A stretch of 26,469 bases of DNA from a virus (taxonomy: Duplodnaviria; Caudoviricetes): the IMG/VR virus record IMGVR_UViG_3300048592_000249, positions 1 to 26,469 of that record; one strand, written 5' to 3'. The notes under the pieces were generated by a model. The model ran no database searches, had not been told where the DNA came from, and saw only the letters and a program-made list of their open reading frames with translations. The position numbers and the translations under genes were made by a program. Positions 4,472 to 26,469 of this stretch are shown here, one piece after another (position 1 is the first letter of the stretch; the number at the start of each line of letters is the position of its first letter).

Positions 4472-4484
4472 CCGGAGCCTGGAC

Positions 4485-4715: not shown

Positions 4716-5005
4716 TCGATGCCGACCTCGCCACGTTCTTCGATGTCGACGAGTTCGCGCGGGAGTTCACGAGGGCTCGCGCCGCTGCGGCCGATCTCGT
4801 GTTCCCGGGCATCCTCGGCGTCGTCGATGAGCATGTCTTCGACTCGCACGCCACCGTGACCATGCGTCGCCTGCGGTTCGCCGCGGCGCACGATGTCCAG
4901 GCCGGCGACACCATCACCGATGGGGTCTCGTCCTGGCTCGTCGAGCGGGTGGAACTGCGCGTCGAGGGTAGCGAGGCCGAAGCTGTCTTGGTGATCTCAG
5001 CATGA
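4712..5005 (+). CDS. Head-tail joining protein (gpFII-like, 97 aa)
   Basis: GTG overlaps the upstream TGA, with a GAGG RBS. DLATFFDVDEFA...GDTIT beta-rich pattern. The upstream ATG at 4523 in the ORF track is not used. Confidence 0.75.
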   Translation: MIDADLATFFDVDEFAREFTRARAAAADLVFPGILGVVDEHVFDSHATVTMRRLRFAAAHDVQAGDTITDGVSSWLVERVELRVEGSEAEAVLVISA

Positions 5006-5436: not shown

Positions 5437-5466
5437 CCCCTTCCTTCCCTTTTTCAAGGAACCATC

Positions 5467-6222: not shown

Positions 6223-6430
6223 TGCCCCGGCCCGGCTCGCGCCGGGCCCGCCCGCACAGCATGTGCCGCAGGCTGATCGCAGCTGCTGCGGCGCACATGG
6301 CAACGCAGCCGACGGCCATGCCCACAGGGGCCCAGGCTGGCCAGCGTCCAAAGAAGGCGACGGCTGCGCCGATCGCCAGAACCACCGCCGCTTGCAGCAT
6401 GCTGCAGCGGCCCGAATTCGTCGCGCGCAT
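6206..6430 (-). CDS. Possible small two-TM membrane protein, antisense within the tail operon
   Basis: Two hydrophobic segments (AAVVLAIGAAVAFF; VGMAVGCVAMCAAAAAISL). TAGGAT lies 6 nt before the ATG at 6430; an alternative ATG is at 6400. Confidence 0.4.
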   Translation of the reverse strand: MRATNSGRCSMLQAAVVLAIGAAVAFFGRWPAWAPVGMAVGCVAMCAAAAAISLRHMLCGRARREPGRGISAGG

Positions 6431-6465
6431 GGCGCGATCCTAACCCCAGCGTGGGAGCACCGGCG

Positions 6466-9400: not shown

Positions 9401-9891
9401 ACTCGCTGCCATTCGTGCTGCGCGAGAAGTACCAGGCGGGAACTCTGACCCCGGGCGACCTGGCCGCTGCGCTGGCCGCGCTCTCCGCGGCGAAGGAGTC
9501 GGCCTACCTCACCGGCTCATCGCAGTTCTCGTCGTTCGCCGCGGTGCCGGACGCCCAGCAGTGGGTCAACACCCTGCAGCAGATCGTCGACTCCCTGCAG
9601 TCGCCCAGCGTGAACCCCGGCACCGGCGCCGGCGCTGGTGGCCTGGGCGGTGGCAATGGCACGTCCAGCGGCACCGTACGAGGCGGGGGCGGCGGTACCA
9701 CGGGGACCTCGGCGGCGGGGTCGGCTGCGGCTACCCCCGTGGCCAGCTCGAGCAGCGGCAGCGCGCGCACCATCAACATCAACCTGAACGGCCAGACCAC
9801 CCGCGTGACCGTGGCCAGCGACACTGATGCTTCCGCCCTGGAGTCGCTGCTGGCACAGATAGGCGCCGCGGCTGCGCGCGCCGGAGCATGA
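6466..9891 (+). CDS. Tail tape measure protein (about 1141 aa)
   Basis: Long Ala-rich helical ORF with the tape-measure motif [35 protein letters not shown]. GTG at 6466 follows GGGAG. Confidence 0.95.
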   Translation: [1141 protein letters not shown]

Positions 9892-9895
9892 GCAC

Positions 9896-10297
9896 ATGGC
9901 CATTACCCTGACCGTCGGCGCGACAACCATCAACCTGCCGGCGGACCTGCTGTGGGCTGACGAGTTCGACTGGCTCCCCGTCGAGCAGACCGAGCGGCGA
10001 ACCATCACCGGGGCGCTGGTGGTGAGCTCGGCTGCCAGGCTGGGCGGGCGGCCGATCACCCTGCAGCCCGAGCGCGACGACTGCGCCTGGTGCGCCCGCT
10101 CGGTGCTAGAGCAGGCGCAGGCCTGGGCGTCGACGCCCGGCCAGGAGTTGACCCTGGTGCTGCGCGGCGTGACGCGCACCGTCATCTGGCGGCACAGCGA
10201 GCGCGCCATCAGCTCCACCCCGATCGTGCACTACGACGACACCGACCCAGGCGACTACTACCTGGCCACCTTCCGATTCCTGGATGTGACCCCATGA
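9896..10297 (+). CDS. Distal tail protein-like virion protein (133 aa)
   Basis: Directly after the tape measure gene; LPADLLWADEFDW...TITGALVV...GRPITL motif. Confidence 0.75.
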   Translation: MAITLTVGATTINLPADLLWADEFDWLPVEQTERRTITGALVVSSAARLGGRPITLQPERDDCAWCARSVLEQAQAWASTPGQELTLVLRGVTRTVIWRHSERAISSTPIVHYDDTDPGDYYLATFRFLDVTP

Positions 10298-13200: not shown

Positions 13201-13959
13201 ACGGTCGCGCCGGCCACCGTCACGAACGCCCAGGTGGTGAGCTGCGGCCGAGTGCGGCTGTCACGGGTGCGGGTGATCGGCAACGACGGGTTGGTCATCA
13301 ACACCGGGTACACGACAGACCTCGATGCAGGCACTGTCACGTTCGTCGACGTGTCGGGCTACTCGCAACCCGTGACGGTCGAGCACCGCATCGAGGATAT
13401 GGCGATGGTCGCCGAGGTGCAAATCAATGGCCGGCTGTCGTTCACGCGGCAGATCAGCCATGACTACCCGGTCCCCGGCAGCATGGTATCGAGCGCGATG
13501 GTCGTCGGGGACATGGAAACCTACGTGCCGACCATGTTCGACCAGACGACGTGGACGTCGGTCTGGTCGGATGCGCAGATCGGCGGGGCCGCCACCGGCA
13601 CGTTCAACGCCATTTCGTACCCGATCGATCTGACGAACACCGGCACGGTGACCGAGCGGTGGCTGATCCAGTTCACGAACACGACCACGTTCCAGGTGAT
13701 CGGCGAGCACGTGGGCGTGATCGCCACGGGGAACACCAGCACTGACTGCGAGCCGACGAACCCCGCGACGGGCACGCCGTATTTCTCCATTCCAGCGCTG
13801 GGCTGGGGCGGCGGCTGGAGCATCGGGAATTGCCTGCGCTTCAACACCGTCGGCACGATCGCGCCGGTGTGGGTGGCCCGGACGATCCAGCAGGGTCCCG
13901 AGACCGTAGACCAGGACGAGTTCACGCTGCTCATTCGCGGCGACGTCGATCACCCATAA
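10294..13959 (+). CDS. Large tail-tip/virion structural protein (1221 aa)
   Basis: ATGA overlap with the upstream gene; N-terminus MTILAGDIKL...FPDISELDRAGGRVNLRKVF; repeated G.VNY.TG beta motifs. Confidence 0.85.
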   Translation: MTILAGDIKLVASQVMSDVPSGGGAPTPTIIADAVQNAIFPDISELDRAGGRVNLRKVFAHVQTANVDGLFGANVIVASGPTDQNVSVTIFSTGDVFDQRSDAANRVEAYLNAGPEGPWFLYENHITGQRAIQLMCRTNVEPPPVGRTLLLRKREGYEDQTEQYVRLTRVQYEERTYSYAVGAEYVDYVAKVCTCDISDALRYDFPGTAANRSFARGSDKTITRDTVVADAATYYGVTPLDVAITTGDAVAMVESVYSQLVPSAQTETSILDQRHSTAYLHTLATSPREVVVGGAPFSQRVRVGQENRGYNYVTIVSPLPAPGSVRVTFRALGNNYSLSDDGLGNLTGSGSGTVNYLTGSISVTLEALPDDRSAVMFYWGPKTAYTDRSGATGYRMPEFVFDLAHTGVTPGSVSITWTSGGVGKTATANSQGVLSGDATGNVVHMTGLVHLRPTAMIDPGGQFQIDYTWATVVEEAKTGLTPDGTGTVAFTTVSEPTPGTLEVQWMVARETSESSGVTSSRGNATKASGSATSVAMVDTTKTYPTWTSDVSAAYSAPVEEVTVQNLHPGAPTYQYFADGAYVVTTRSPVVSTSSFSSSDSSMYSETSSQSSKASVTVAKLVTDDGAGAFFGALGTANYVGKSYTLKVQGDWTETAFSSNFEDAGTFESLNATSEPTATVGGGTPPTTTEGGGGSTSAKGGSFGSEAQKEVFGTNSLVVRYKTGSPTPTAHSENYTPPGVTIDLCPYTTDIIVPGSVKFTWMGTVYEDYEGILYRGRTVGDPGIVSGVVNYTSGVAGMSDYVVSGSPTSLTVQSLWTRKAREHIANVTFSTSLAPIKPTGLTVSVLDVEGVQLLSTANLAGEVTGPHTHGKIDYESGLVEMQFGDYVLDSGLTAEEKAQWWYDADNVRTGDGKIWRPWPVDPETLRYSAVAYFYLPLDASILGLDPVRLPQDGRVPIFRPGGFAVVGHTDTVAPATVTNAQVVSCGRVRLSRVRVIGNDGLVINTGYTTDLDAGTVTFVDVSGYSQPVTVEHRIEDMAMVAEVQINGRLSFTRQISHDYPVPGSMVSSAMVVGDMETYVPTMFDQTTWTSVWSDAQIGGAATGTFNAISYPIDLTNTGTVTERWLIQFTNTTTFQVIGEHVGVIATGNTSTDCEPTNPATGTPYFSIPALGWGGGWSIGNCLRFNTVGTIAPVWVARTIQQGPETVDQDEFTLLIRGDVDHP

Positions 13960-13971
13960 CCCGAGGGCAAC

Positions 13972-15135
13972 ATGAGCGCAACCTCCGTCAAGTTCTACCA
14001 CTCACAGATGACCGGGGCCGCGGTGCTGACCGGGCAGGCCGGCAAACTCATCGACGTGCTGGACGCCGTGCTGGTCAATGGCTGGGGGCTGGCGACCGTT
14101 GACTCGGTCGTCATCGCGTCCGGGGTGGCCACCGTCACGCGTGCGGGCGGGCACCCGTTCGAGGTGGCGGGCGTGGCGTTGATCGCCGACGCAACCGTCA
14201 CTGGCGGCACCATCAATGGCGAACACCGCGTGCTGTCGACCACGGCCACGACGTACACGTTTGACGCCACTGGGCTTGCGGATCAGACCGCAACGGGGAC
14301 GATCACGCACAAGGTGCCGCCGCTGGGCTGGGTGAAGGCGTACAGCGGGACGAACCTTGCGGCGTACAAGAGCGGCGATCCGGCGTCAACGCTGTGCTTG
14401 ATGCGCGTGGATGACACCGGCACCAGCAACGCTCGCGTCGTCGGATACGAGACGATGTCGGACGTGAACACCGGCACCGGGCCGTTCCCGACCGCGGCCC
14501 AGGTGTCGGGCGGTACGTACTGGCCGAAGTCCTACACCACTGATGCCACGGCCCGCTACTGGCAGATTGTGGGCGACGAGCGCACGTTCTACATGCAGAC
14601 CGTGCACAGCGGCTCAAACAATGCTTGCGTGTCGGCGTTCGGGGACATTCTGAGCCGCAAGGCGAGCGATGCGTACGCGTGCACGCTTCAGGCACCGGGA
14701 TCAAACATCGTAAGCTCCGCCCCGTCGGGGGCGTCGTGCATCTACGCTGGCAACTCGTCGGGATCGCAGTGGGTGCCACGGCAGGCCAGCAACATCGGGT
14801 CATCTGCGGCGGTCTATCGGTTCCCCGTGTCGCCGACCGCTCCGCAGTCGGCAATGAGTGGGAGTTCGGCGTGGTCCATGGCGTACCCCGACCCCGTGAA
14901 CAACGCACTGCTGGTCGCCCCCGTGTCAGTCGGGGAGGGCGCGTCCGGGGTGAACTGGCGGGGCACCTTGCCCGGCCTATGGTACGTGCCGCAAAACGTC
15001 GTGAGCGCGGCAGTGTTCGCAAAGCGCGACAGCGTGACTGGCGTCACCGGGCTGACCGGCCGCACGCTCAAGGCCTTCGTCGACTCAGGGTCTAGCGCGG
15101 TTGCCCTGTTCGACGTGACCGGCCCCTGGAGGTAG
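13972..15135 (+). CDS. Tail-associated, possibly receptor-binding protein (387 aa)
   Basis: GAGGG RBS; Thr/Gly/Ser-rich beta protein inside the tail module. Confidence 0.75.
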   Translation: MSATSVKFYHSQMTGAAVLTGQAGKLIDVLDAVLVNGWGLATVDSVVIASGVATVTRAGGHPFEVAGVALIADATVTGGTINGEHRVLSTTATTYTFDATGLADQTATGTITHKVPPLGWVKAYSGTNLAAYKSGDPASTLCLMRVDDTGTSNARVVGYETMSDVNTGTGPFPTAAQVSGGTYWPKSYTTDATARYWQIVGDERTFYMQTVHSGSNNACVSAFGDILSRKASDAYACTLQAPGSNIVSSAPSGASCIYAGNSSGSQWVPRQASNIGSSAAVYRFPVSPTAPQSAMSGSSAWSMAYPDPVNNALLVAPVSVGEGASGVNWRGTLPGLWYVPQNVVSAAVFAKRDSVTGVTGLTGRTLKAFVDSGSSAVALFDVTGPWR

Positions 15136-15140
15136 GGTAG

Positions 15141-15509
15141 ATGGCGCAGACCCACACAGCCGCCAACGTGGTCGATCCGCTGCCGATCGCGGTGGTGTCG
15201 CCGGGCGTCACGCTGACGAAGACCGTGGTTTCCGGCCCCGTCGAGCCGTGGCGCTTTCATTGTGGACTCGGGCGCATCGACGGCACCGTCAAGGTCGACT
15301 CGTCGCCAGACTACCCGGTGCACCGCAAGGTGCGGTGCTTCCGCGACCGAGACGCGGTGTGCGTGGGTGAGACGTGGAGCGACCCAGTCACGGGGGCTTA
15401 TTCGTTCGAGTACGTCGACCCGGCGGAGCGCTACACCGTGCTGGCCTACGACTACACGGGGGCTTACCGCGCCGTGGTCGCCGACAACCTCACCCCGGAC
15501 CCGATGTAA
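15141..15509 (+). CDS. Small tail-associated beta-sandwich protein (122 aa)
   Basis: GRIDGTVK...ETWSDPVTGAYSFEYV...YTVLAYD...AVVADNLTP pattern. Confidence 0.75.
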   Translation: MAQTHTAANVVDPLPIAVVSPGVTLTKTVVSGPVEPWRFHCGLGRIDGTVKVDSSPDYPVHRKVRCFRDRDAVCVGETWSDPVTGAYSFEYVDPAERYTVLAYDYTGAYRAVVADNLTPDPM

Positions 15510-15907
15510 TGGCGCAAGTCGACATTTCTACCGCGCATAACGAGTGGCGTCTCCAGGGGTCGCTCGATTTCATCGACGACGGCCCGTCTGCCGGGCGCAT
15601 CGAGGTGTACGACGGGATCAAGCCGCCGCCAGGCGACGCGGTCACCACGCAGGTCAAGCTGTTTGAGTTCGTGCTGACGTCGCCCCCGGGCAGCGTCATG
15701 TCAGGCACTGCAGACGTGACTGCCGCGGGCGTGGCGATGGTGCTCGCCACCGGCGCGCCCACGTGGTCGCGTTGGATCAATGGGAGCGGCGCATGGGTGC
15801 AGGACACCGATGCCGGCGGCCCGGCCAGCAGCGCGGCGGTCAAGGTGTCGGCGGCCACAGTCTACGCGGGCGGCGAGGTGTCGCTCACCTCCGCTGTGAT
15901 GGGGTGA
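15509..15907 (+). CDS. Virion structural protein (132 aa)
   Basis: TAATG overlap with the upstream stop; IEVYDGIKP...ATGAPTWSRW motif. Confidence 0.75.
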   Translation: MAQVDISTAHNEWRLQGSLDFIDDGPSAGRIEVYDGIKPPPGDAVTTQVKLFEFVLTSPPGSVMSGTADVTAAGVAMVLATGAPTWSRWINGSGAWVQDTDAGGPASSAAVKVSAATVYAGGEVSLTSAVMG

Positions 15908-15910
15908 TGG

Positions 15911-17803
15911 GTGCCGACCGTCGCGCTGCTGTTCGTCGAGGGGCCGGCCAGCGGCCCGCCGGTCGACCTGCTGTTCGGGGCTGCGCCGGGTGGCTCGACG
16001 GACGCCACTGCGACGATCGAACTCACGCTGCCGCCGCCGACGCTCGCCGCGTGGGTGGCCGAGCACTGGACGGCCACAGTCAGCGGCGTGGCGCTGCCGG
16101 GGCCGACAGTGACGTCGGCCGTGTACTACGCGAGCCGCACCGACCGCCCCACCGTGGCCGCGACGCATGGGCAGTGGGGCGAGGCCGACGCGCGCGTGAC
16201 TGGATCGGCCTCGTGGCATCGCCTGGGCGTTGCGTTGCGCACCGGTGCTGCTGCCGCCTACGGGCCGGCGTTTGGGGTGCGTGCCGCGCTGGCTGGCAGT
16301 TGGGGCGACGGCGATCGGGTGCGCCAGCAGCGCACGGGCAGCTACCGCGAGGCCCAGCAGGTGCAGGCAGGGCAGCGGCAGGCGCCATGGCGCGCGATGC
16401 TTCGAGACCGGCGGCCCAGCCTGGCGGCCCCGTGGGGACCGGCCGACGCGCGGCGCGTCTCGCGGTCGACGGACTGGCAGGAGCGCTACCGTGACCGCCG
16501 GCCCGCGATCCGCTCCCCGTGGGGCCCGGCAGATGCGCTGCGCCGCGGCACGACCGGATCCACCGGTACGGCGCTACCCGTGCGCCGGCCGCTCGATGTG
16601 GAGTGGCGCGAGGCGATCCGCCCGCCCGCGGGCATGTGGATCCCTCCCGTCGTGCCGCCCGGCGGCGGGTGCTACACGCCCGACGCCGATCTGCTGTTCC
16701 GCGCCGCGTGGTCGCTCGACACGGCGCTGCTGTTCACGTGCCGCGGTGAGGGTGGGGGCGGCGACCCACCGGTCGCGACCGTTGTTGTCCCGGTTCGAAG
16801 GGTGTACTACGTGATCAACACCGTTACGCTCGCGCGCGTCGATACAGGAGCGCCGATCCGAGCCGAAAACCTGCGCCTGTCCCTCGATGCAGATTCCTGG
16901 GCCTGGGGATGGTCTGCGTCGATCCATGCGGCCGACCAGTCGCTGGTCATGCCTGGCGTCGGGGGCGATCCGGCGCTGCTGGTGGCCACGATCAACGGCA
17001 CGGCCATCCGGCTGCTGGCCGAAAAAATCGCTCGAGATCGCACGTTCGGGGCCACTACATTGCGCGTGTCAGGGCGCGGCAAGACCGCGCTGCTCGATTC
17101 GCCGTATGCCCCGGTGCTGCAGTTCGACAATGCGGCGCTGGCCCGCACCGCCGAGCAGCTCATGAACGACGCGCTGATGATCAACGGCGTTCCCATTGGC
17201 TGGTCGGTCTCGTCGTCTCTGACCGATTGGCTGGTGCCCGCCGGAGTCTGGTCGCACCAGGGGTCGCACATCTCGGCCGTGGTGTCCATCGCGTCGGCGG
17301 CCGGCGGCTATGTCCAGCCGCACGACACCGACGATGCCCTCATCGTGCGCCACCGCTACCCAAGCGCTCCGTGGGACTGGGGCGCGCTTACCCCGGACTA
17401 CGAGATCCCGGCCGATGTGGCCACGGTCGAGGGCATCGAGTGGGCGGACAAGGCCGAATACAACCGCGTGTTCGTCGCCGGCCAGGCTTCGGGCGTGCTG
17501 GGGCAGGTGACCCGCGGCGGGACTGCGGGCGATGTCATCGCCCCAATGGTGACCGACCCCCTGATCACGCATGCCGATGCGGCTCGCCAGCGAGGTCGCG
17601 CAATCTTGTCGGACACCGGCCGCCAGGCGCTCGTGCAGCTGCGCATGCCAGTGCTCACTGCAACCGGAATCATCCGCCCTGGCGCACTGGTGCGCTACAC
17701 CGAGGGCGCAACCAGTCGGCTCGGGCTGGTGCGCGGCGTGAGCGTCGAGCACCAATGGCCCGAACTCTGGCAAACCATCGCGGTGACGACCCATGGCGAC
17801 TAA
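15911..17803 (+). CDS. Tail protein with hub-like C-terminal domain (630 aa)
   Basis: In-operon GTG start. Trp-periodic N-terminal half; C-terminal LSLDADSWAW...YNRVFVAG...DPLITHADAARQRGRAIL. Confidence 0.8.
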   Translation: MPTVALLFVEGPASGPPVDLLFGAAPGGSTDATATIELTLPPPTLAAWVAEHWTATVSGVALPGPTVTSAVYYASRTDRPTVAATHGQWGEADARVTGSASWHRLGVALRTGAAAAYGPAFGVRAALAGSWGDGDRVRQQRTGSYREAQQVQAGQRQAPWRAMLRDRRPSLAAPWGPADARRVSRSTDWQERYRDRRPAIRSPWGPADALRRGTTGSTGTALPVRRPLDVEWREAIRPPAGMWIPPVVPPGGGCYTPDADLLFRAAWSLDTALLFTCRGEGGGGDPPVATVVVPVRRVYYVINTVTLARVDTGAPIRAENLRLSLDADSWAWGWSASIHAADQSLVMPGVGGDPALLVATINGTAIRLLAEKIARDRTFGATTLRVSGRGKTALLDSPYAPVLQFDNAALARTAEQLMNDALMINGVPIGWSVSSSLTDWLVPAGVWSHQGSHISAVVSIASAAGGYVQPHDTDDALIVRHRYPSAPWDWGALTPDYEIPADVATVEGIEWADKAEYNRVFVAGQASGVLGQVTRGGTAGDVIAPMVTDPLITHADAARQRGRAILSDTGRQALVQLRMPVLTATGIIRPGALVRYTEGATSRLGLVRGVSVEHQWPELWQTIAVTTHGD

Positions 17804-18017
17804 CCTCTATGTGCAGTTCCGGCGACTGCTGCCCACGTATCCACTGCAGGCGGCCGAGGTGATCTCAACTGCGGGCGGCCAGGCGGTGGTCGAACTGCCT
17901 GGAGGCGGGCAGATGACCGTGCGCGGTACCGGATCCATCGGCGCCATGGTCTACGTGCGCGACGGCCTAATCGAGGGGCCCGCGCCGACGCTCCCGGTCG
18001 AGTTGATCGACGTCTGA
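17793..18017 (+). CDS. Small tail-tip protein (74 aa)
   Basis: Overlaps the upstream gene; NLYVQFRRLLP...VYVRDGLIEGPAP. Confidence 0.75.
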   Translation: MATNLYVQFRRLLPTYPLQAAEVISTAGGQAVVELPGGGQMTVRGTGSIGAMVYVRDGLIEGPAPTLPVELIDV

Positions 18018-18035
18018 CCCCATGCGACACATTAG

Positions 18036-18066
18036 TTGCCCTGGCGCGCTGTTCGCGCGCTAGGAT
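18036..18066 (+). promoter_or_regulatory. Candidate promoter upstream of the lysis cassette
   Basis: TTGCCC-N19-TAGGAT in the 100-bp gap before the first lysis gene. The spacer is longer than optimal. Confidence 0.25.
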
Positions 18067-18118
18067 TCCTGCGCGCGCGCGAGGCGCGCGAGCGACACCA
18101 CGACAAGGAGACTGCCCG

Positions 18119-18436
18119 ATGCCAATCGAGTTCGACCCCGAGCGCGCCATGCGCAGCCCGTGGGCCGCGGGCGCGCTTGGCAGCGTCGTGGCCCTGAAGT
18201 TCGCCCCGGGCATGACCTGGGGCGAGCGGGCGTTCAACGTGTTGTGCGGGGCGCTATCGGCCGGGTTTGTGGCGCCGCCGCTGTGCGAATACCTGCATCT
18301 GACCAGCGCCATGGCGCAGTCGGGCGCCGCGTTCCTCGTCGGGCTGTTCGGGCTGAGCCTGGCGGCGGCGCTGGTCGAGGCCGTGCGCGTCGTGGGGTGG
18401 GGGGACGTGATCCGTGGCTGGATTTCGCGGAGGTGA
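18119..18436 (+). CDS. Putative holin (105 aa, about 3 TM segments)
   Basis: AAGGAG RBS; hydrophobic segments; basic C-terminus; first gene of the lysis module. Confidence 0.7.
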   Translation: MPIEFDPERAMRSPWAAGALGSVVALKFAPGMTWGERAFNVLCGALSAGFVAPPLCEYLHLTSAMAQSGAAFLVGLFGLSLAAALVEAVRVVGWGDVIRGWISRR

Positions 18437-18440
18437 TGTC

Positions 18441-18758
18441 GTGGCTGTCGTGTCTACCATCAACGTCGTCGCCTGCCTGGCCATCGCCTGCGCGATCACG
18501 TGGGCCGTCATGTCCTCGTCAGTGCAGGACGGCCTCGTCATCAAACTGGGGCTGATCTGCTGCGCTTTGGGCTTCGTCGGCACCGCGGCATCGATCGCAG
18601 ACGATCGCATGTGGGCGCTCAACAATGCGTTGTTGCTCATCCACGGTGGCGCAATCGTGGTGGCCGGCGGGTACTGGCTGCGGCAGCGCAAGCGAGCGCG
18701 ACTGCACCGGCGACGTAAGTCGGACCGTTCACACTTGCGTAGCGTGGGTGCCGCGTGA
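18441..18758 (+). CDS. Second lysis-module membrane protein (holin/antiholin-like, 105 aa)
   Basis: GGAGGT RBS before GTG at 18441; three hydrophobic helices and a strongly basic tail; stop overlaps the endolysin start. Confidence 0.7.
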   Translation: MAVVSTINVVACLAIACAITWAVMSSSVQDGLVIKLGLICCALGFVGTAASIADDRMWALNNALLLIHGGAIVVAGGYWLRQRKRARLHRRRKSDRSHLRSVGAA

Positions 18759-19513
18759 GCGCCCCGCTGCCCGACCCCGCGCTACCGTGGCCGATCCCGC
18801 TCGAGGCGGTCGCCCTGATCGCGGAGAGCGAAGGGCTGCGGCTGCGCGCGTACCGCTGCCCGGCCGGCGTCTGGACGATCGGATGGGGCGAGACTGACGG
18901 CGTGCACCCTGGCGACACATGCACGCGCGAGCAGGCCGACCGTTGGCTGTGCGAGGACGTGACCGACCGCGCCCGCGCCGTGCGAGCGCTGTGCACTGTC
19001 GAGCCGTCGCCGGCCGAGCTCGGGGCGCTGGTCTCGCTCGCGTACAACATCGGCCTGGCCGGGTTCCAGCGCTCGACGGTGCTGCGTCAGCACAACGCCG
19101 GCGACCGCGAAGCCGCGGCGCGCGCCTTCGGTCTATGGGACAAGGCGCGCGTCAACGGCGTGCTAACCACGCTGCCCGGTCTGACAGCGCGCCGCGCCCG
19201 CGAGGCTGCGATGTACCTGCAGGGCGACGCGGACCCAGCGCCGATGCCGCAGGCTGTCGAGGCCGAAACGACCCTTGCCACGAGCCCGATCGCGCGCGGC
19301 GGCGTGGTCGCGGCCGGTGCTGGGGTGATCGAGGGCCTGCGCCAGATCGGCGAGAGTGTGGGCGGCATCCGCGGGCCGCTGGACGCTGCGCGCGGCGTGT
19401 TGGTCGACACGCTGGGCGTGCCGCCTCAGTGGATCTTGCCGGCGGTGTTGATCGCCGCGGGCGTGTTGGTGGTGCGCTGGCGTCTGACGCAGCGGCGCGA
19501 GGGGCGGGCGTGA
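18755..19513 (+). CDS. Endolysin, GH24 phage lysozyme, with C-terminal hydrophobic extension
   Basis: EGLRLRAYRCPAGVWTIGWG catalytic region, ALVSLAYNIG, and GLTARRAREAAMY. Confidence 0.92.
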   Translation: MSAPLPDPALPWPIPLEAVALIAESEGLRLRAYRCPAGVWTIGWGETDGVHPGDTCTREQADRWLCEDVTDRARAVRALCTVEPSPAELGALVSLAYNIGLAGFQRSTVLRQHNAGDREAAARAFGLWDKARVNGVLTTLPGLTARRAREAAMYLQGDADPAPMPQAVEAETTLATSPIARGGVVAAGAGVIEGLRQIGESVGGIRGPLDAARGVLVDTLGVPPQWILPAVLIAAGVLVVRWRLTQRREGRA

Positions 19514-20022
19514 TACCGCTGGCGCCGGTCCTGGGCGTCTTGCGCGCCGTTCCGGTGTGGGCCTGGGCACTGGCCGCCTGCCTCGCCTGGGGCGGTTGGC
19601 AGCGGCACCGCGCCACCTCCGCTGCCGCCGCGCTGCAGCACGCCCAGGCAGCGGCCGCCGCCGAGCGCGAGACCGCGTTGCAAGCGTCCATCGCCGAGAC
19701 CCAGCGCCGCTTGAAGGCGCAACAGGAGATTGCCCATGCTGCTGACCTTGCCGCGTCTCGCGCGCGTGCTGACGCTGCCGCTGCTGCCGATGCTGCTGGC
19801 CGCCTGCGGCAGCGCATTGCCGCTGTCCAGGCCAACGCCCGCGCCAGCCATCCCGCCGCTGCCGGCGCAGGCGCGGCAGACCGACTCGGCGACGCACTCG
19901 CAGCGTGCGCAGACCAGTATCGAGGCGTGGCTGCAGCCGCAGACCGCGCCATTGCCGCCGGGCTCGCCTGCGAGCGCGCCTACGACTCGTTGACCGGGGA
20001 TACCAATGAGACTACGAGATGA
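19510..20022 (+). CDS. Rz: Rz-like inner-membrane spanin (170 aa)
   Basis: GTG overlaps the endolysin stop; N-terminal TM segment, Ala-rich coiled coil and AGLACERAYDSL terminus. Confidence 0.8.
   Translation: MIPLAPVLGVLRAVPVWAWALAACLAWGGWQRHRATSAAAALQHAQAAAAAERETALQASIAETQRRLKAQQEIAHAADLAASRARADAAAAADAAGRLRQRIAAVQANARASHPAAAGAGAADRLGDALAACADQYRGVAAAADRAIAAGLACERAYDSLTGDTNETTR
19736..19993 (+). CDS. Rz1: Rz1-like outer-membrane lipoprotein spanin embedded in Rz (85 aa)
   Basis: AGGAG RBS; signal peptide with lipobox LLAAC; Pro-rich mature part; +1 frame wholly inside Rz. Confidence 0.8.
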   Translation: MLLTLPRLARVLTLPLLPMLLAACGSALPLSRPTPAPAIPPLPAQARQTDSATHSQRAQTSIEAWLQPQTAPLPPGSPASAPTTR

Positions 20023-21050: not shown

Positions 21051-21320
21051 TCACCGAGGCTGGAGCGCCGGCCTGACCCACTCGCGCCAGTCCTGCGCGC
21101 GCAGGTGGCCCGCGGCGCAGTGGGCGACGAGGAAGAGCTCCCACGCCGCGCGCGGCATCCGCCTGCGCCCGGCCTCCCAATCTTGCCAGGTGCGCGCGGT
21201 GGCGTACACCTCCGCCGCTGCCTGGGCCTGGGTCTGCAGTACGCCGATGCGGACATCGGCGATCAGCTCGGGCGGGGGGGATGCCGCCACCCGAGTCTTG
21301 CGGTTTGGGTGGTTGGTCAT
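21051..21320 (-). CDS. HTH (XRE-like) transcriptional regulator (89 aa)
   Basis: TQAQAAAEVYATARTWQDWEAGRRRMPRAAWELF; ATG at 21320, just after the upstream gene's stop. Confidence 0.85.
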   Translation of the reverse strand: MTNHPNRKTRVAASPPPELIADVRIGVLQTQAQAAAEVYATARTWQDWEAGRRRMPRAAWELFLVAHCAAGHLRAQDWREWVRPALQPR

Positions 21321-21324
21321 GCCG

Positions 21325-21540
21325 TCAACCGCGCCGCACCTCGACGACGATCGGCACCACGTGCCCGTAATACGGGTTGATGGCGCGCCCGGACGGTGCT
21401 GGTCCACTCCGCAACGAGCGCGCCTCGGCCTCTGCCGCGGCGCGGGTCGAGTGCCGCGTGACGGGGCCGGTGCGCAGCCCACTAAGTTGGTCGGCGCTGT
21501 TCGCCCGCGCCCAATGGACCTCGAAATGAATGGTGCTCAT
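21325..21540 (-). CDS. Hypothetical protein (71 aa)
   Basis: GGGAGAATCGAC-ATG initiation region; middle gene of the minus-strand operon. Confidence 0.7.
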   Translation of the reverse strand: MSTIHFEVHWARANSADQLSGLRTGPVTRHSTRAAAEAEARSLRSGPAPSGRAINPYYGHVVPIVVEVRRG

Positions 21541-21558
21541 GTCGATTCTCCCTATCGA

Positions 21559-21789
21559 TCAGATGGCTTCGTGTTTCTGGGTCTCGACGCAGCCGAGGTA
21601 GCCCAGGGCCGTGCGGAGGTTCATGCACGTGTGCCGCTCTGGCGAGCCAGCGCCGAACAGGCGGAGCGCATCGGTCGCCTGGATCGTGCCTTCGTCGTCG
21701 GCCGCATTCCACGCGGCGAGTACCTCGCGCTTGCTGGCTGTGCCGATGGCCATGCCGTAATGGCGAAGAACTTCGGTCGCTGTTGTCAT
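21559..21789 (-). CDS. Hypothetical protein (76 aa)
   Basis: Identical GGGAGAATCGAC-ATG initiation region; first gene downstream of the promoter at 21850-21878. Confidence 0.7.
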   Translation of the reverse strand: MTTATEVLRHYGMAIGTASKREVLAAWNAADDEGTIQATDALRLFGAGSPERHTCMNLRTALGYLGCVETQKHEAI

Positions 21790-21849
21790 GTCGATTCTCC
21801 CGCCCGCTTCCCGGGGCCCGGGTCGCAGCGGTATTGCTGCGATGGAGAC

Positions 21850-21878
21850 ACTATATCGCACGCAATGCGTGAGTGCAA
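21850..21878 (-). promoter_or_regulatory. Sigma70 promoter with a palindromic operator in the spacer
   Basis: Minus strand TTGCAC-N17-TATAGT; perfect palindrome CACGCA-A-TGCGTG at 21859-21871. Confidence 0.75.
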
Positions 21879-21902
21879 GCGGTTTTCGCATAGGGAAAAC
21901 CC

Positions 21903-22253
21903 GTGACAATCACGCTGGAGTCGATCCACGGCGCTGCGCAGATCGCGCGCGTCTATGAGACCGACCCAGCCGGCAGCATGCCGCCGATCGACGCCGTGTG
22001 CGTGCTCGAATGGGATGCGCCGCGCGTCGTGTGGGTGAAGGCCCTCAAGGGACGGCTCAGCCGGCGCACACTGCGGGAACTGCTGTGCCTGCTGGTCGAC
22101 CTGGGTGTGCACACCGTGCGCGCTCAACGGGCCGAGGGGCACGTGCTGCCCGGGGGCGTGGACCAGGGGGATGGCACGGTGCGGATCGACGTGCGCGCGC
22201 TCGCGCATCGGTTCGCGTCGCCCGGCGCGAGTGCGTGGGCGGACGTCGAGTAA
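21903..22253 (+). CDS. Hypothetical protein (116 aa)
   Basis: GTG start, globular alpha/beta composition, ends just before the attP arm. Confidence 0.65.
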   Translation: MTITLESIHGAAQIARVYETDPAGSMPPIDAVCVLEWDAPRVVWVKALKGRLSRRTLRELLCLLVDLGVHTVRAQRAEGHVLPGGVDQGDGTVRIDVRALAHRFASPGASAWADVE

Positions 22254-22292: not shown

Positions 22293-22510
22293 CTGTGCCG
22301 GTTCTGTGCCGGGTCTAGGCCGATTTCCGTCGTGGCGCCGCGCGCAAGTCCTTGATTTCACACGCGCCGTGACGACCGGAACGTCTTGTGATTCTGGTCG
22401 TCGTGGGTTCGAGTCCCATCAGCCACCCCACCGAATTCCCCTCTGAGAGGGGCACTTCGGGGCCGGTTTCGTTGCCCGCCGCGCGCGACGGTTGTGCCAG
22501 AGTTGTGCCG
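22293..22510. other. attP region: paired arm-type repeats, IHF box and core
   Basis: CTGTGCCGG twice (22293, 22304) and GTTGTGCCR twice (22491, 22502), each pair 11 bp apart. AATCAAGGACTTG on the minus strand at 22345-22357 matches WATCAANNNNTTR. Confidence 0.75.
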
Positions 22511-23598
22511 GTGGCCGGCACGTTCCCGGCCCATTCCGCGATGTGGCTGAGCCCCAGGTGCGCGTAGCGCTGCACCATCGCGAGACTGGCCCAGCCGCCG
22601 AGCTCTTGCAGCACCGGCAGCGGCGTGCCGGCCTGGACGTGCCAGCTCGCCCAGGTGTGCCTTAGGTCGTGGAATCGCAGCCACGGCACGCCAGCGCGCT
22701 CGCAGGCTTTGCGCCATGCGTGATTGCTGACCTTTCCGGTCGGTCCCACCGCCTTGGCCCAAGCCCCGTCGTCGAGCCGCTGCCAGTGCTCGACCGGGAA
22801 GACCCAGCGCCTGTGCTGCCCCGTCTGGCTGGCGAGCACCGCCAGAGCTTCGGCGTTCAGCGGCACGGTATGCGTGCGGCCGGCTTTCATCTCGGCGGCC
22901 TCGAACCACGCCAGCGCGCGAGCTTGGTCGATCTGCTGCCACGTCAGCAGCCGGACGTTGCTTTCGCGCAACCCCGTCGCCAGCGCGAACCTGGCCATTG
23001 CCTGCAGGTGGGGGGGTAGCTCGGCGAGCAGGCCGGCCGCTTGCTCGCGGGTGAGCCATGCGACGCGCTTGGTCGGTTCGTCAGCCTTGGCGATCGGCGG
23101 CACCGCCGCGAGCCAGCCGCGGCGGTGCGCGTAGTGCAGGATCGCGCTGAGCTGAGCCATGTGGCGGTTGACCGTCGCGCCGCTGGTCGCCTTCGGCTCG
23201 GGCGCAGGCCGCTTGGCGGCGTGGGCGCGTGCGATCTCGCGGGCGTTGACCGGCTGTGCGCGGCGCGCCTTGACCAGCCGGCGGATCAGATCATCGGTGA
23301 TCTCGGTCAGCAGCTTCCCCTGCAGGTAAACGCTGAGCCAGCGCAGCACGCGCTTGATCTCCTCAATGCTCTTGCGATGCTCGTGCTCGCCGAGCCATGC
23401 CACGACGGCCTGGTCCCAGGTTACGGACGGGGCTTCGCCGAGCCTCCTGGCGCGCCAGAGATCGCGCGCAAGGGTGGCGGCGTATTCCTTCGCCTCGGAG
23501 TGGTCCGAGGTGCCAGTGCTGCGTCGAGCGCGCTGGCCTGCGACCTCGCCGAGGTCAACCCACCACGTGCCTCGTTTGCCGCGCTGATAGAGCCGCAT
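22315..23598 (-). CDS. int: Phage integrase (tyrosine recombinase, 427 aa)
   Basis: GGAGG RBS before ATG 23598; arm-binding-type N-terminus; TGLRESN, RFHDLRHTWASW, LGGW and QRYAH catalytic motifs. Confidence 0.95.
   Translation of the reverse strand: MRLYQRGKRGTWWVDLGEVAGQRARRSTGTSDHSEAKEYAATLARDLWRARRLGEAPSVTWDQAVVAWLGEHEHRKSIEEIKRVLRWLSVYLQGKLLTEITDDLIRRLVKARRAQPVNAREIARAHAAKRPAPEPKATSGATVNRHMAQLSAILHYAHRRGWLAAVPPIAKADEPTKRVAWLTREQAAGLLAELPPHLQAMARFALATGLRESNVRLLTWQQIDQARALAWFEAAEMKAGRTHTVPLNAEALAVLASQTGQHRRWVFPVEHWQRLDDGAWAKAVGPTGKVSNHAWRKACERAGVPWLRFHDLRHTWASWHVQAGTPLPVLQELGGWASLAMVQRYAHLGLSHIAEWAGNVPATGTTLAQPSRAAGNETGPEVPLSEGNSVGWLMGLEPTTTRITRRSGRHGACEIKDLRAAPRRKSA
22386..22430 (+). other. 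attP core: 3' half of tRNA-His(GTG), not a complete tRNA
   Basis: TTGTGATTCTGGTCGTCGTGGGTTCGAGTCCCATCAGCCACCCCA covers the anticodon loop, T-arm, acceptor 3' strand and CCA. No D-arm or 5' acceptor strand lies upstream. Confidence 0.9.
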
Positions 23599-23780
23599 GG
23601 AGCCTCCCGAAATTTGCCGTACTGTTGCCGCAGCCAAGTCACGACGTCATCCTCGACGAGGACGAAAGCGCGGCCGACCTTGGCCGCCGGTAAGCCGCGA
23701 TTGTGGATGCAGTCGCTAACCGTCTCCGCGGTGGTCTTGAGCACCGCGGCTGCTTCGTCCAGCGTGAGCGTGCGGCTCAT
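23421..23780 (-). CDS. xis: Excisionase-like HTH DNA-binding protein (119 aa)
   Basis: LTLDEAAAVLKTTAETV...GLPAAKVGRAFV motif. The ATG overlaps the intI stop; the 3' end overlaps the int start by 178 nt. Confidence 0.85.
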   Translation of the reverse strand: MSRTLTLDEAAAVLKTTAETVSDCIHNRGLPAAKVGRAFVLVEDDVVTWLRQQYGKFREAPCGSISAANEARGGLTSARSQASALDAALAPRTTPRRRNTPPPLRAISGAPGGSAKPRP

Positions 23781-24838
23781 GCGGGGGCATCCAGCGGACT
23801 GCGCACACCTCGCCCGCCCTGGGTCGCGGGCAGAACGTGGGTGTAGATCATCGTCGTTTCGACATCCGCGTGCCCCAGCAGGGTCTGAATCGTGCGGATG
23901 TCGTAGCCGTCCTGGAGCAGGTGAGTCGCGAACGAATGCCGCAGCGTGTGCGGCGTCGCCCGCTTGAGAATGCCGGCTTGGCGCACGGCGCGCGCCATCA
24001 GGCGCTGGATGCCGTCCTCGTGCAGGTGGTGCCGTCGAATCGCCCCGGTGCGCGGGCAGGTGACGTAAGCGTCGGTGGCGAACACCCACTGCCACCGGAT
24101 GTCCTGGCCGGCGCGCGGGTACTTGGCGTGCAGGGCGTGCGGCAGTTCCACGTCGGCGCGGCCGGCGGCCACGTCGAGCTGATGCAGCGCGCGCCGCTGC
24201 TCGATAACTTCGCCAAGCTGGGATGCCAGCAAGCGCGGCAGCATGACGGTGCGGTCCTTGTTGCCCTTGCCCTCGCGCACGGTGATCGCGCCGGCCGCGA
24301 AGTCGACGTCCTGCACGCGCAGGCGCAGCCCCTCCATCAGCCGCATGCCGGTGCCGTAGAGCAACCGCAGCACCAGGCCGCGCACGCTGGACTGCGGGAT
24401 CTGGCGCCACAGCCGCGCCACCTCGTCGCGCGTGAGCACCACCGGCGGGCGCTGCGCCTGCTTGGCGCGCACGATGCCGTCGACCCACGGCAGATCGACC
24501 TGGAGCGCTTCGCGGTACACGAACAGCAGCGCGGCCAGCGCCTGGCGCTGCGTGCTGGCCGATACATCCCGCTCGGTGGCGAGATGGCTCAGGAACTGGC
24601 CGATCTCCGGCGCGCCCATCTCGAGCGGGTGGCGCTTGCCGGCCCACAAGACGAACTGCCGCGTCCAATGCCAGTACGCCTGCTCGGTGCGGCGGCTGTA
24701 GTGGCGGGTGCGGATGGCGCTGACCAGTGCATGCCGCAGGTGCCCGGGCTCGCCGGGCTGCGGTACAGCCCCAGGCGCGCAGGTCGCAGCGCGGCGCGTA
24801 ACGGCCGTACAGGTGGGCGGTGCGAGGGTGACGCTCAT
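23777..24838 (-). CDS. intI: Integron integrase (up to 353 aa)
   Basis: HYSRRTEQAY, STQRQALAALLF, LLYGTGMRLMEG, VREGKGNKDR, the integron-specific insertion LPHALHAKYPRAGQDIRWQWVF, HTLRHSFATHLL, LLGHADVETTMIYTHV and VRSPLD. All catalytic residues are present. Confidence 0.97.
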   Translation of the reverse strand: MSVTLAPPTCTAVTRRAATCAPGAVPQPGEPGHLRHALVSAIRTRHYSRRTEQAYWHWTRQFVLWAGKRHPLEMGAPEIGQFLSHLATERDVSASTQRQALAALLFVYREALQVDLPWVDGIVRAKQAQRPPVVLTRDEVARLWRQIPQSSVRGLVLRLLYGTGMRLMEGLRLRVQDVDFAAGAITVREGKGNKDRTVMLPRLLASQLGEVIEQRRALHQLDVAAGRADVELPHALHAKYPRAGQDIRWQWVFATDAYVTCPRTGAIRRHHLHEDGIQRLMARAVRQAGILKRATPHTLRHSFATHLLQDGYDIRTIQTLLGHADVETTMIYTHVLPATQGGRGVRSPLDAPA

Positions 24839-24846
24839 GGTGGAGC

Positions 24847-24887
24847 GGTGTTACGCCGCGGGTTTGGCGGTCGAATTCGCGTTGGGC
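24847..24887 (+). other. Putative attI site (crossover G/TT at 24881/24882)
   Basis: GTTGGGC core 43 bp upstream of the intI ATG with no attC hairpin of its own. GGTGTTACGCCGCGGG lies 31 bp before the core and resembles the attI1 direct-repeat region GATGTTACGCAGCAGGG (recalled sequence). Confidence 0.75.
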
Positions 24888-25216
24888 GTCTTGCGGCGCG
24901 CCAGCTCTGCGGCGCACATCGTGATGGCGCGTCGAGTGGCTGCCAGGGCATCTGTGCCGTAGGGCTCCACCACTTCCACGCCGTCGCCTTCCTGAGCATC
25001 GTGGTCCCATACCGGCTTGCGCACGATCACCGAATGCTTTGGCTCGTCGTACATCGGGTACGCGGTCACCTGCAGCCCGATACGTACCGCCAGCACAAAA
25101 GCGTCTTCGTTGTTGGTCAGTGGGTTCCACGGCCGCTCGCCAAAGCCGCTCGGCATCACCCACGGATAGGCGTGGCCGTTGGCCTGTGCTGCACGCATCA
25201 ACAGTTCGTCTTTCAT
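24851..25216 (-). CDS. Cassette 1 ORF: phage hypothetical protein (121 aa), possibly NinX/DUF2591-like
   Basis: AAGGA RBS; WNPLTNNEDAFVLAV...AATRRAITMCAAE motif common in phage early-region proteins. The stop codon lies in attI. Confidence 0.8.
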   Translation of the reverse strand: MKDELLMRAAQANGHAYPWVMPSGFGERPWNPLTNNEDAFVLAVRIGLQVTAYPMYDEPKHSVIVRKPVWDHDAQEGDGVEVVEPYGTDALAATRRAITMCAAELARRKTPNANSTAKPAA

Positions 25217-25245
25217 GCTCAATCCTTCTCGCTTCGGACCCTGCC

Positions 25246-25342
25246 GCCCAACTGGTCGGTCGAGGCGACGCCTTGCGGCGTCGCGGTTGTGGTCTGCGAA
25301 GGCTGGTGCGCCGCAAGGCGCGCCTCACCTCCAACGTTAGGC
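25246..25342 (+). repeat. attC site 1 (97 bp)
   Basis: R'' GCCCAAC, 5 nt, L'' GGTCGAGG (extra C), a perfect 12-bp inner stem (25269-25280/25309-25320), L' CCTCACC, 6 nt, R' GTTAGGC. Confidence 0.93.
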
Positions 25343-25343
25343 C

Positions 25344-25586
25344 TCAATGCTTCCGCACCAGGCCCGAGCGGAACTCTTGGCCGTTCGGGTCGATCACGAT
25401 GAACTCGCCGTTCTCCACCCGCACCTCAACATCGACACCGGTCGCGCTCTTGAACAGGCGCTTCACCCCTTCGATGCCGTTGTCACGCGGCAGTGGCGGC
25501 TTTGGGCATTCGCCGCTGTAGCCGTGGAACTTGAACATCTCTTCGCCTTGCGGCATTGGTTCTCCGCACAATTCGCACTTGCTCAT
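25344..25586 (-). CDS. Cassette 2 ORF: small putative metal-binding protein (80 aa)
   Basis: GGAAAGG RBS; CELCGEPMP...FKFHGYSGECPKPPL; the stop is 1 nt from the R' box. Confidence 0.8.
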   Translation of the reverse strand: MSKCELCGEPMPQGEEMFKFHGYSGECPKPPLPRDNGIEGVKRLFKSATGVDVEVRVENGEFIVIDPNGQEFRSGLVRKH

Positions 25587-25622
25587 CTCGTACCTTTCCG
25601 CCAGGCCTCGCCCGGCTCGTTG

Positions 25623-25647
25623 AAAACGCCCACCCTTGCGGGTCGGC
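25623..25647 (-). terminator. Terminator-like hairpin in the cassette 2 leader
   Basis: Minus strand GCCGACCC-GCAA-GGGTGGGC-GTTTT (one mismatch, short U tract). Confidence 0.4.
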
Positions 25648-25684
25648 TTGTGGTTGTGGTCAGGCCCTGGGCTTCGCGCCACAG

Positions 25685-25745
25685 GCCTAACACGTTGGTC
25701 AAGGGGACGTCCACAAGTGGCCGCCCCTTACCGCTGGGGTTAAGC
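25685..25745 (+). repeat. attC site 2 (61 bp)
   Basis: R'' GCCTAAC, 5 nt, L'' GGTCAAGG, L' CCTTACC, 6 nt, R' GTTAAGC. Confidence 0.93.
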
Positions 25746-25985
25746 GTCAACCGGCACGACAAAATGGCGCGTCCAGTCGGTGTCTCGCGGGGCCGACTTC
25801 TTAACCAGCGCCACCAGTTCATCGAAATGCTTTTGCGCTTCGTTCACCTTGTTGCGTGCGTCGGTTTCACTGTTCCGAGCGCGTGCTGTCAATTCGCACA
25901 TCCGGCCAAGGTAATCCTGTGCCGAAGCCACAGCAGCCACAGCGTTTGCAAGTTGTGTGTTCAGGCTCTGCTTTTGTTCACTCAT
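25740..25985 (-). CDS. Cassette 3 ORF: coiled-coil hypothetical protein (81 aa)
   Basis: AAAGGA RBS; the TAA stop is the TTA inside the attC2 R' box. Confidence 0.8.
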   Translation of the reverse strand: MSEQKQSLNTQLANAVAAVASAQDYLGRMCELTARARNSETDARNKVNEAQKHFDELVALVKKSAPRDTDWTRHFVVPVDA

Positions 25986-26016
25986 ATTCGTGTCCTTTGT
26001 GTGTATTAAAAACTCG

Positions 26017-26070
26017 GTTTAACAGGGCAGTCGAGCGGGACGCTACGCGCCCCTCACTTCTGCGTTGGGC
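26017..26070 (+). repeat. attC site 3 (54 bp)
   Basis: R'' GTTTAAC, 5 nt, L'' AGTCGAGC, L' CCTCACT, 5 nt, R' GTTGGGC. Confidence 0.88.
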
Positions 26071-26071
26071 G

Positions 26072-26289
26072 TCACGATTGCGCGTGCTGATCGCACTGTC
26101 GGTATTCGTACCGCTCCAGGCTCATGGCGTCGTCTTGTGCGGCTCGTAGGTCAGTTGCAGCATGGCCTTTGTCAGCTCGCCGTATTCCTCGCCCAGTACA
26201 GCCAGGGCGTGCAGCGGGTCGGTAGGCCAGGTCGGGAACTTCACCGTGGCTCGGGCCACTTCAGCGGTAATTTGGTCAATAACGTTCAT
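26072..26289 (-). pseudogene. Cassette 4 second ORF: MazG-like (NTP pyrophosphohydrolase fold) gene, apparently frameshifted by an internal deletion
   Basis: AAGGAG RBS; ALAVLGEEYGELTKAML motif; stops at 26122 after 55 aa. Another frame continues AMSLERYEYRQCDQHAQS* to a stop 1 nt from the R' box. Confidence 0.6.
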
Positions 26290-26432
26290 CTTTTTTTGCT
26301 CCTTTGCTTTATGTGATCTAGGTCGTGGTCCTGAACCGTCGCAACTGGGTTGCACCTTTGATTGGCTGAGTGTTTTCCGCCGCAGTAGGGGCATTTCGTT
26401 TTTGTTTCAGGCTTGCGGTCAATGGTTGTCAT
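26286..26432 (-). CDS. Cassette 4 first ORF: 48-aa putative zinc-binding peptide (absent from the ORF track)
   Basis: Translated by hand: MTTIDRKPETKTKCPYCGGKHSANQRCNPVATVQDHDLDHIKQRSKKR*. Its TGA overlaps the next ATG (ATGA). Confidence 0.6.
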   Translation of the reverse strand: MTTIDRKPETKTKCPYCGGKHSANQRCNPVATVQDHDLDHIKQRSKKR

Positions 26433-26442
26433 CGCGGCTCGC

Positions 26443-26469
26443 GCCCAACTGGCGCATCAACCCGGACCG
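26443..26469 (+). repeat. attC site 4, left half (truncated by the window end)
   Basis: R'' GCCCAAC, 5 nt, L'' CATCAACC, then CGGAC. The R'' is complementary to GTTGGGC at 26064. Confidence 0.8.

Follow-up and report, generated by a model that had tools for sequence, protein, structure and literature searches.

Does a phage operate an integron of its own, or does it only carry one that belongs to bacteria? This question is raised by the virus record IMGVR_UViG_3300048592_000249, which we analysed whole (26,469 nt; hereafter the window) and which holds a temperate phage in attP form. A gene for an integron integrase (intI), an attI site and a series of cassettes bounded by attC sites lie there directly upstream of the phage excisionase-like gene xis and the integrase gene int, at the far end of the early operon, and the genes in the cassettes run opposite to their attC sites. 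We consider this a phage-resident integron whose cassettes are likely inserted and excised by the phage's own IntI, a reading drawn from sequence to which we give a probability of about 0.8. The initial annotation of the window had proposed a domesticated integron at the int/xis early operon, and the intact IntI, attI and attC that precede xis and int, together with the phage genes on either side, bear this out. A second record of the same phage, G001 (47,138 nt, rated 100% complete), carries an array of eight attC sites and nine cassettes in total.

Integron integrase, attI and attC sites

The integron features of the window were the following.

23777 to 24838, minus strand: IntI, 353 aa, intact (TIGR02249, 2A3V, catalytic residues, dN/dS)
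24850 to 24887, plus strand: attI, with a GTTA motif, GAATT and the R box at 24881-24887 (clade motif; contigs of relatives stop matching at the core)
24882 to 25336, minus strand: cassette 1, 455 bp; open reading frame (ORF) 24851-25216, 121 aa (phrog_5086)
25246 to 25342, plus (top) strand: attC1, 97 bp (own scanner; bottom strand -35.1 kcal/mol, z -5.25)
25337 to 25739, minus strand: cassette 2, 403 bp; ORF 25344-25586, 80 aa (no family)
25685 to 25745, plus (top) strand: attC2, 61 bp (own scanner; folding z -1.84)
25740 to 26064, minus strand: cassette 3, 325 bp; ORF 25740-25985, 81 aa (no family)
26017 to 26070, plus (top) strand: attC3, 54 bp (own scanner; folding z -0.81)
26065 to 26469, minus strand: cassette 4, incomplete at the window end; ORF 26122-26289 (phrog_2831; MazG-like lead)
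26443 to 26469, plus strand: attC4, first arm only in the window (complete in G001, 63 bp, z -4.64)

IntI scored 426 bits against TIGR02249 (cutoff 265), and its best PDB match was VchIntIA, 2A3V (E 2e-76). Residues R166, K191, H297, R300, H323 and Y332 align with those of IntI1 and the insertion region of IntI1 is present too, in agreement with the full-length enzyme with integron-specific insertion and all catalytic residues that had been annotated. The catalytic residues were conserved in 60-61 of the 61 members of the IntI clade described below, and the ratio of nonsynonymous to synonymous substitution rates (dN/dS) was 0.05-0.31 in 14 out of 14 clade pairs tested, which corresponds to purifying selection. 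Residues and dN/dS together argue for IntI activity.

The annotated attI-like site was found again, with a GTTRRRY core adjoining intI at which relatives diverge; crossover would take place after position 24881. Its motif, GAATY-NNN-GTTR, was present in 33 of the 50 clade loci and in 1 of the 64 other genome loci. The ORF of cassette 1 runs through attI. The attC sites were detected with our own scanner, not with IntegronFinder; the three complete sites of the window scored 19.5-20.25, and the shuffled null gave 0.25 hits per 21 kb at a score of at least 15 (20 shuffles). The four attC-bounded cassettes of the initial annotation are all in view, three of them with a complete attC, and cassette 4 and attC4 are cut by the end of the window.

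Reversed cassette genes on canonical attC polarity

As in any integron, the attC sites have their top strand directed away from intI, and the cassette genes lie on the strand of intI, xis and int. All cassette ORFs of the window are thus reversed relative to their attC, a feature absent from the initial annotation, and each cassette reads attC, ribosome site and gene on the early-operon strand. Among the unique attC sites of the clade, 119 point away from intI and 1 points the opposite way; the bottom strand was the more stable in 94 out of the 119, and the usual extrahelical base was present in 109, much like in chromosomal sites. The array therefore does not have the canonical layout, with genes facing away from intI for expression from the cassette promoter Pc, nor is intI oriented as the attC sites, as in integrons with an inverted integrase.

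We found 71 viral loci with a related IntI; 47 of those had at least one upstream attC, and many others end close to intI. Array orientation was called with a composition-corrected score, after a codon-trained gene caller had missed AT-rich chromosomal cassette genes. The viral loci (n=71, duplicates included) comprised 33 reversed, 1 canonical, 4 tied and 33 uncalled arrays, and the bacterial genome loci (n=80) 9 reversed, 21 canonical, 5 tied and 45 uncalled arrays. Six of the nine reversed bacterial loci fell within the phage IntI clade, with phage genes at all five that were checked (L118 was too short for this check); of the other three, L115 and L142 were outside the clade and L096 was among the rows removed from the tree.

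The same orientation was recovered from gene content. Among unique cassettes outside L050, 32 of 103 reversed-strand ORFs had a PHROG match versus 1 of 99 canonical-strand ORFs, while in the canonical array of L050, used as a control, matches were found for 0 of 13 reversed-strand and 3 of 13 canonical-strand ORFs. The start codon lay inside the attC in 24 out of 103 cassettes and at most 60 nt after it in 57 out of 103, and the stops of the cassette genes cluster at the next core. A short leader containing CCGAAG was also observed between R'' and the ribosome site in 13 of the 103 cassettes (L001 5229-5262, 7915-7944 and 9593-9623, and relatives); this shared leader may be a trace of cassette making. 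Separately, locus L073 (3048-3776), from a Halothiobacillus metagenome-assembled genome whose IntI is outside the phage clade, contains two reversed phage-like cassettes (one phrog_1273) among canonical ones, a possible case of cassette transfer from phage to host.

Cassette turnover at the att cores

The initial annotation had proposed that the integron shuffles accessory genes of the phage, and this was seen comparatively, since relatives gain, lose or replace cassettes at the att cores. The loci L162 and L157 are 97% alike in both flanks and share no array DNA, with the breaks at the first attC and at attI. L009 equals L007 plus one cassette at attI, and L035 and L036 have identical backbones with differing internal cassettes. 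In addition, L013 and L057, whose IntIs are 77% and 56% identical to that of the window, share an 834-bp methyltransferase cassette that is 97.5% identical from core to core.

Similar breaks were observed in sequencing runs, which were compared as contigs only; the runs labelled RNA are probably DNA and uninformative on expression. Contigs in runs X1, X4, X5 and X7 match intI and attI of the window and then diverge at the core, and one X8 contig ends there. Another X8 contig carries cassette 1 without a single difference, with an attC-like arm in the place of attI, run X7 contains a homolog of cassette 3 that starts at the same boundary, and contigs diverge at 26017 and 26071, around attC3. 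Two contig joints (9610>6849 and 9962>6279) probably reflect repeat matches and were left out.

For 81 of the 92 unique cassettes that were informative, R'' matched the core opening its own cassette better than the local R', against 7 ties and 4 contrary cases, as is expected for circles inserted one by one. This test alone cannot give the polarity of recombination, which was taken from the attC that travels with shared cassettes: these carry their attC at the end far from attI. Taken at the level of sequence, the cassettes move as units bounded by cores. Two attC sites were also found downstream of intI in L024 (12512-12960), one of which is 97% like an upstream site of L022.

A clade of phage integron integrases

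In a tree of 146 IntI rows, the IntI of the window belonged to a clade of 61 phage or prophage-like loci with a Shimodaira-Hasegawa-like approximate likelihood ratio test (SH-aLRT) support of 99, so the phylogeny called for by the initial annotation places it among phage enzymes. Nine rows were dropped from this tree for stops or short length (L010, L057, L066-L070, L096 and L137). The clade holds 29 of the 30 reversed viral arrays and no mainly canonical array, and it was supported at 100/98 in a 70-row subset tree, the group having been taken from the 146-row tree. When 31 IntIs were added (the 29 best family hits and the second copies of G002 and G003), all of them fell outside the clade. 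Viral relatives reached 75-81% identity to the IntI of the window, and the IntIs from genomes of the putative host family at most 61%, apart from the one on a prophage-like contig of G002. In the sampled set the clade is confined to phage-like loci. Its sister lineages are the IntIs of beta- and gammaproteobacterial chromosomal integrons; because the clade is nested among these, an ancient bacterial origin is likely.

In 39 of the 45 loci scanned, the first long gene beyond intI was the integrase gene of the phage, of either the tyrosine or the serine type and either co-oriented or convergent. As the type and orientation of this neighbour vary, the intI module resides in unrelated phages. The order intI-xis-int, for which a search of viral loci had been suggested, was also found in L003, L004, L013, L014, L045, L069 and L070, with int 57-75% identical. 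The overlap of the intI stop with the xis start (ATGA, 23777-23780) is present as annotated; it is not the conserved feature, and what recurs is the position at the end of the early operon beside the phage integrase.

Some members and relatives differed from this pattern. In L069 and L070 only 48 codons of intI are left, while attI, attC, xis and int are retained, and in L155 (690-1345), a phage 97% like L162, another gene replaces attI and intI with the cassettes still upstream. In the cultured strain Aromatoleum toluolicum T, a prophage-like clade member (L114, 8860-11005) has its reversed cassettes flanked by an xis-like gene and a convergent int; a separate integron of the strain (L174) is canonical and has a LexA box. 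A second viral IntI group was found outside the main clade (L053, L054, L055, L062 and L063), one of them with a reversed cassette, and is possibly an independent capture. Among isolated phages, 9 of 50,697 records matched IntI at E<=1e-30, none above 60% identity. An IntI-like gene, annotated xerD, was noted in the GenBank virus L168 (Virus Rctr41k, KX853513; 4680-5678, 47% identical), where one attC lies downstream of it (8415-8545) and opposite to the genes.

Proposed mechanism and alternative explanations

We propose that IntI would recombine the folded bottom strands of the attC sites by the usual integron chemistry (Nivina 2016, PMC5027507), and that new cassettes would be inserted at attI, beside intI. 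The promoter would then be most distant from the youngest cassette, opposite to the gradient set by Pc. Transcription of the cassettes, intI, xis and int would start at an early promoter repressed by CI, and not at Pc and the LexA-controlled Pint, and shuffling would for that reason occur at infection or induction. The likely payoff would be a quick exchange of accessory early genes, notably of DNA methyltransferases, whose presumed role is to act against host restriction. A 15-nt operator-like palindrome was found in the gap between cro and cI and recurred at two places where the early operon begins (L001 1583, 2330 and 2354 for the three together; 4 matches versus 0.6 expected); the fourth match falls inside attC1. 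Near intI and attI, the sigma-70 consensus scan, which is insensitive, gave no match for Pc. We do not claim that the bottom strand of attC serves as lagging-strand template, the orientation of high excision (Loot 2017), since this would rest only on the position of the primase-helicase gene; the cumulative GC skew of G001 located no origin.

Several observations weigh against a phage-operated integron of this kind. The same insensitive sigma-70 scan returned the cro-side promoter only and not the one of the early operon, and intI has no clear ribosome site. None of the 48 clade loci had a LexA box, against 7 of 63 other genome loci and 3 of 4 references, though its absence in the clade says little because so few of the other genome loci have one. 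attC2 and attC3 fold no better than shuffles (z -1.84 and -0.81), 10 of the 11 ORFs of the G001 array had no Pfam or PADLOC hit, the pairs compared showed gain, loss or replacement and no change of cassette order, and no excised cassette or circle joint was readable among the run contigs. With regard to clade sampling, 12 of the 64 GTDB parts were scanned and the 80 best loci retained, and patterns derived from the query bias all the searches.

The most serious alternative, which we consider unlikely, is that the array is real and the host's chromosomal IntI does the shuffling, with the phage IntI idle or kept for another job. Host enzymes are common, with an IntI in 150 out of 401 genomes of the putative host family, and could share in the shuffling; IntI1 is reported to recombine phage-borne attC (Qi 2023, PMC9892861), and CALIN-like arrays (attC clusters without intI) persist in the relatives L069/L070 and L155, where intI is deleted or replaced. 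What speaks for the phage enzyme is the conservation of its catalytic residues with a low dN/dS, the attI that travels with intI in the clade (33/50 versus 1/64), and the divergence of relatives exactly at the phage attI. In the window phage itself intI is intact, and the array is not a CALIN. A recent, transduction-like capture of a piece of a host chromosomal integron as passive cargo, of the kind that Qi 2023 describes for Vibrio and Shewanella phages, would agree with the host-derived or class 1 nature of the published complete phage integrons (PMC9892861) and with the nesting of the clade among proteobacterial chromosomal IntIs. It is largely refuted by the 75-81% identity that viral relatives reach versus 61% for the best family genome outside the prophage-like contig, by cassette genes that belong to phage families and lie on the strand of the phage operon, and by the chromosomal arrays of the same analysis, which are mostly canonical; we regard it as very improbable.

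Slightly less probable again is that ordinary cassettes were inserted upside-down by top-strand recombination and then selected as the phage promoter is on the other side. Such recombination exists at low frequency and inverts the cassette (Nivina 2016, PMC5027507), but gene and attC would then flip together, whereas here attC polarity is canonical (119 versus 1) and the gene alone is reversed; shared cassettes, moreover, carry the attC at the end far from attI, and 24 of 103 start codons lie inside that attC. Finally, a chimeric assembly that joins a bacterial integron to a phage at xis/intI could be suspected, since the window is a partial record from a metagenome that differs from G001 by 55 nt, and G001, possibly obtained from a related sample, is perhaps not independent of it. 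The junction is identical in G001, and contigs of relatives span it in at least five of the eight runs, from three studies (X1, X4, X5, X6 and X7); together with the intI-xis-int order of the other loci named above, this refutes a chimera, which the initial annotation had named as a refuting find.

Relation to known integrons

The initial annotation took integrons to be known mainly as chromosomal or plasmid/transposon-borne. Phage-genome integrons are already in print. In 10,705 phage genomes, Qi 2023 (PMC9892861) reported 3 complete integrons, 1 In0 and 17 CALINs, the complete cases being a piece of a Vibrio superintegron, class 1 integrons in P1 and a cryptic Shewanella prophage whose IntI is 95% like a chromosomal one; in their accessible text, PMC13492144 and PMC13366799 only cite that study. 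Those integrons resemble ours in having intI, attI, attC and cassettes in phage DNA, with methyltransferase cargo; they differ in that the genes of M16-3 are canonical and accompanied by a LexA box, while here the genes are reversed and the IntI clade is phage-resident. In TJE1 and P12002L a single well-scoring attC was detected each, co-oriented with the genes, and other CALINs of that study could include reversed ones. A phage IntI clade with reversed cassettes was not found in the literature searched, most subscription journals and bioRxiv supplements lying outside the search.

By IntI, attI, attC and cassette mobility the element is an integron, though not one of canonical layout. It shares with class 1 mobile integrons an IntI 58-59% identical to IntI1, the same catalytic residues and insertion, an attI 5' of intI, the attC polarity and the extrahelical base. 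It differs from them in its reversed genes, in the lack of a transposon, resistance gene or LexA box, and in another attI at about 40 nt from the intI start; IntI1 falls outside the phage clade, so the element is not of class 1. Nor is it a transposon- or plasmid-borne mobile integron, as phage hallmarks lie on both sides and no transposase was found among the genes scanned. Sedentary chromosomal integrons of Beta- and Gammaproteobacteria (e.g. VchIntIA, 2A3V) are sister lineages with similar attC length and strand asymmetry; unlike the phage clade, they lack the GAATT attI and are mostly canonical (66 canonical, 26 reversed and 19 uncalled cassettes over all genome loci, prophage-like ones included). 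The 'inverted integron-integrase' group of Treponema and others (Cury 2016, PMC4889954) likewise has intI co-oriented with the cassette genes, but here intI and attC keep their normal opposite geometry and the genes alone are flipped.

Integrons are usually regarded as devices of bacteria; according to Nivina 2016 (PMC5027507), their strand selectivity keeps genes facing Pc, and Loot 2017 (PMC5371416) links cassette excision to the replication strand. A phage lineage that keeps the polarity of recombination and reverses the genes would indicate that the integron platform can be rewired to an outside promoter. Mosaicism of small genes in the early regions of phages would also have a site-specific mechanism, by which methyltransferases could be swapped quickly.

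How integron cassettes arise is an open question, for which mirror-image cassettes (start in or just after attC, stop at the core) are a new test case. We lean, at somewhat better than even odds, towards a wider reading in which phages run an integron system of their own: a lineage of IntI specific to phages, which has its own attI and answers to the repressor switch and not to SOS, and a separate 'attC-first' pool of phage-gene cassettes with their own translation starts, which would pass between unrelated phages and sometimes enter host integrons. If true, this system would drive the mosaicism of phages site-specifically and would give cassettes a second, mirror-image way of forming. Aromatoleum toluolicum T, with its prophage-like copy and separate canonical integron, makes the idea directly testable in culture.

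Cassette contents

The named cargo of the clade consists mostly of DNA methyltransferases and PAPS-reductase-like proteins, and most cassette genes have no assigned function. In G001 the last cassette encodes a DNA methyltransferase, with half an attC left; it was the only PADLOC match of the array (1 of 11 ORFs) and, among the matches listed (30 of 193), the only array gene matched in isolated phages. The ORF of cassette 4 is shortened in the window by a 55-nt deletion and comprises 90 aa in G001. This deletion, at 26126-26129 with a 4-nt microhomology, is either a real variant or an assembly error. In the ESM Atlas, the cassette-4 product matched a cluster auto-named MazG-like at 0.95 and PF03819 at 0.89. 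A NinX lead for cassette 1 (Atlas 0.85) was too weak and was dropped. Cassette 3 has a GC content of 55% versus 68% for the genome, and proteins of phrog_5086 are encoded by both cassettes 1 and 5 of the L001 array (7944-8327 and 9623-9988).

Phage genes and attachment site

The remaining features of the window were as follows.

1605 to 20022, plus strand: head/tail/lysis module (PHROG/Pfam: head maturation protease, decoration, major head, major tail, tape measure, holins, endolysin, spanin)
22315 to 23598, minus strand: phage tyrosine integrase (int), 427 aa (PF00589 E 2e-29, phrog_1)
22386 to 22430, plus strand: attP core, the 3' part of tRNA-His, inside the int 3' end (45-nt match to genomes of the G002 genus)
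23421 to 23780, minus strand: excisionase-like xis, 119 aa (HTH_17, TIGR01764 and phrog_1840 on the N-terminal ~53-62 aa); it overlaps the int 5' end

To the right of the array G001 encodes a dNMP kinase, divergent cI and cro, a primase-helicase, a terminase and a portal, and no host genes, so these are phage genes and not the host genes that the initial annotation had named as a refuting find. The cI call relies on position and on an N-terminal helix-turn-helix read by eye, without a family match. With terminase, portal, capsid, tail, lysis genes, repressor and cro, int and xis, and attP, the element is a temperate tailed phage. The absence of transposase and resistance genes was upheld: no such family matched among the 30 and 36 ORFs scanned. 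Window and G001 differ by one mismatch, by repeats near the start and by the 55-nt deletion in cassette 4.

The 45-nt attP core was matched in 137 of 151 genomes of the G002 genus (G002 is labelled Rubrivivax sp.), many of the matches being identical, and the match was tRNA-His at 4 of the 5 loci checked. This suggests a host in that genus, which is not thereby fixed. The DNA is in attP form, because the tRNA-His 3' piece has phage genes on both sides, and loose contig ends at 22386 correspond to the 5' part of the tRNA. ARAGORN reported zero whole tRNAs over the window, and an Rfam scan gave two matches only, both at chance level.

Between the lysis genes and attP (21051-22253) there are three small minus-strand ORFs, one with a helix-turn-helix, and one plus-strand ORF, all without a PHROG family. 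The first ORF of the window (1-522) has leucine-rich-repeat-like repeats and differs there from G001. Finally, the attP core lies within the int reading frame (22315-22432), and therefore the C-terminus of the integrase would differ between the free and the integrated phage.

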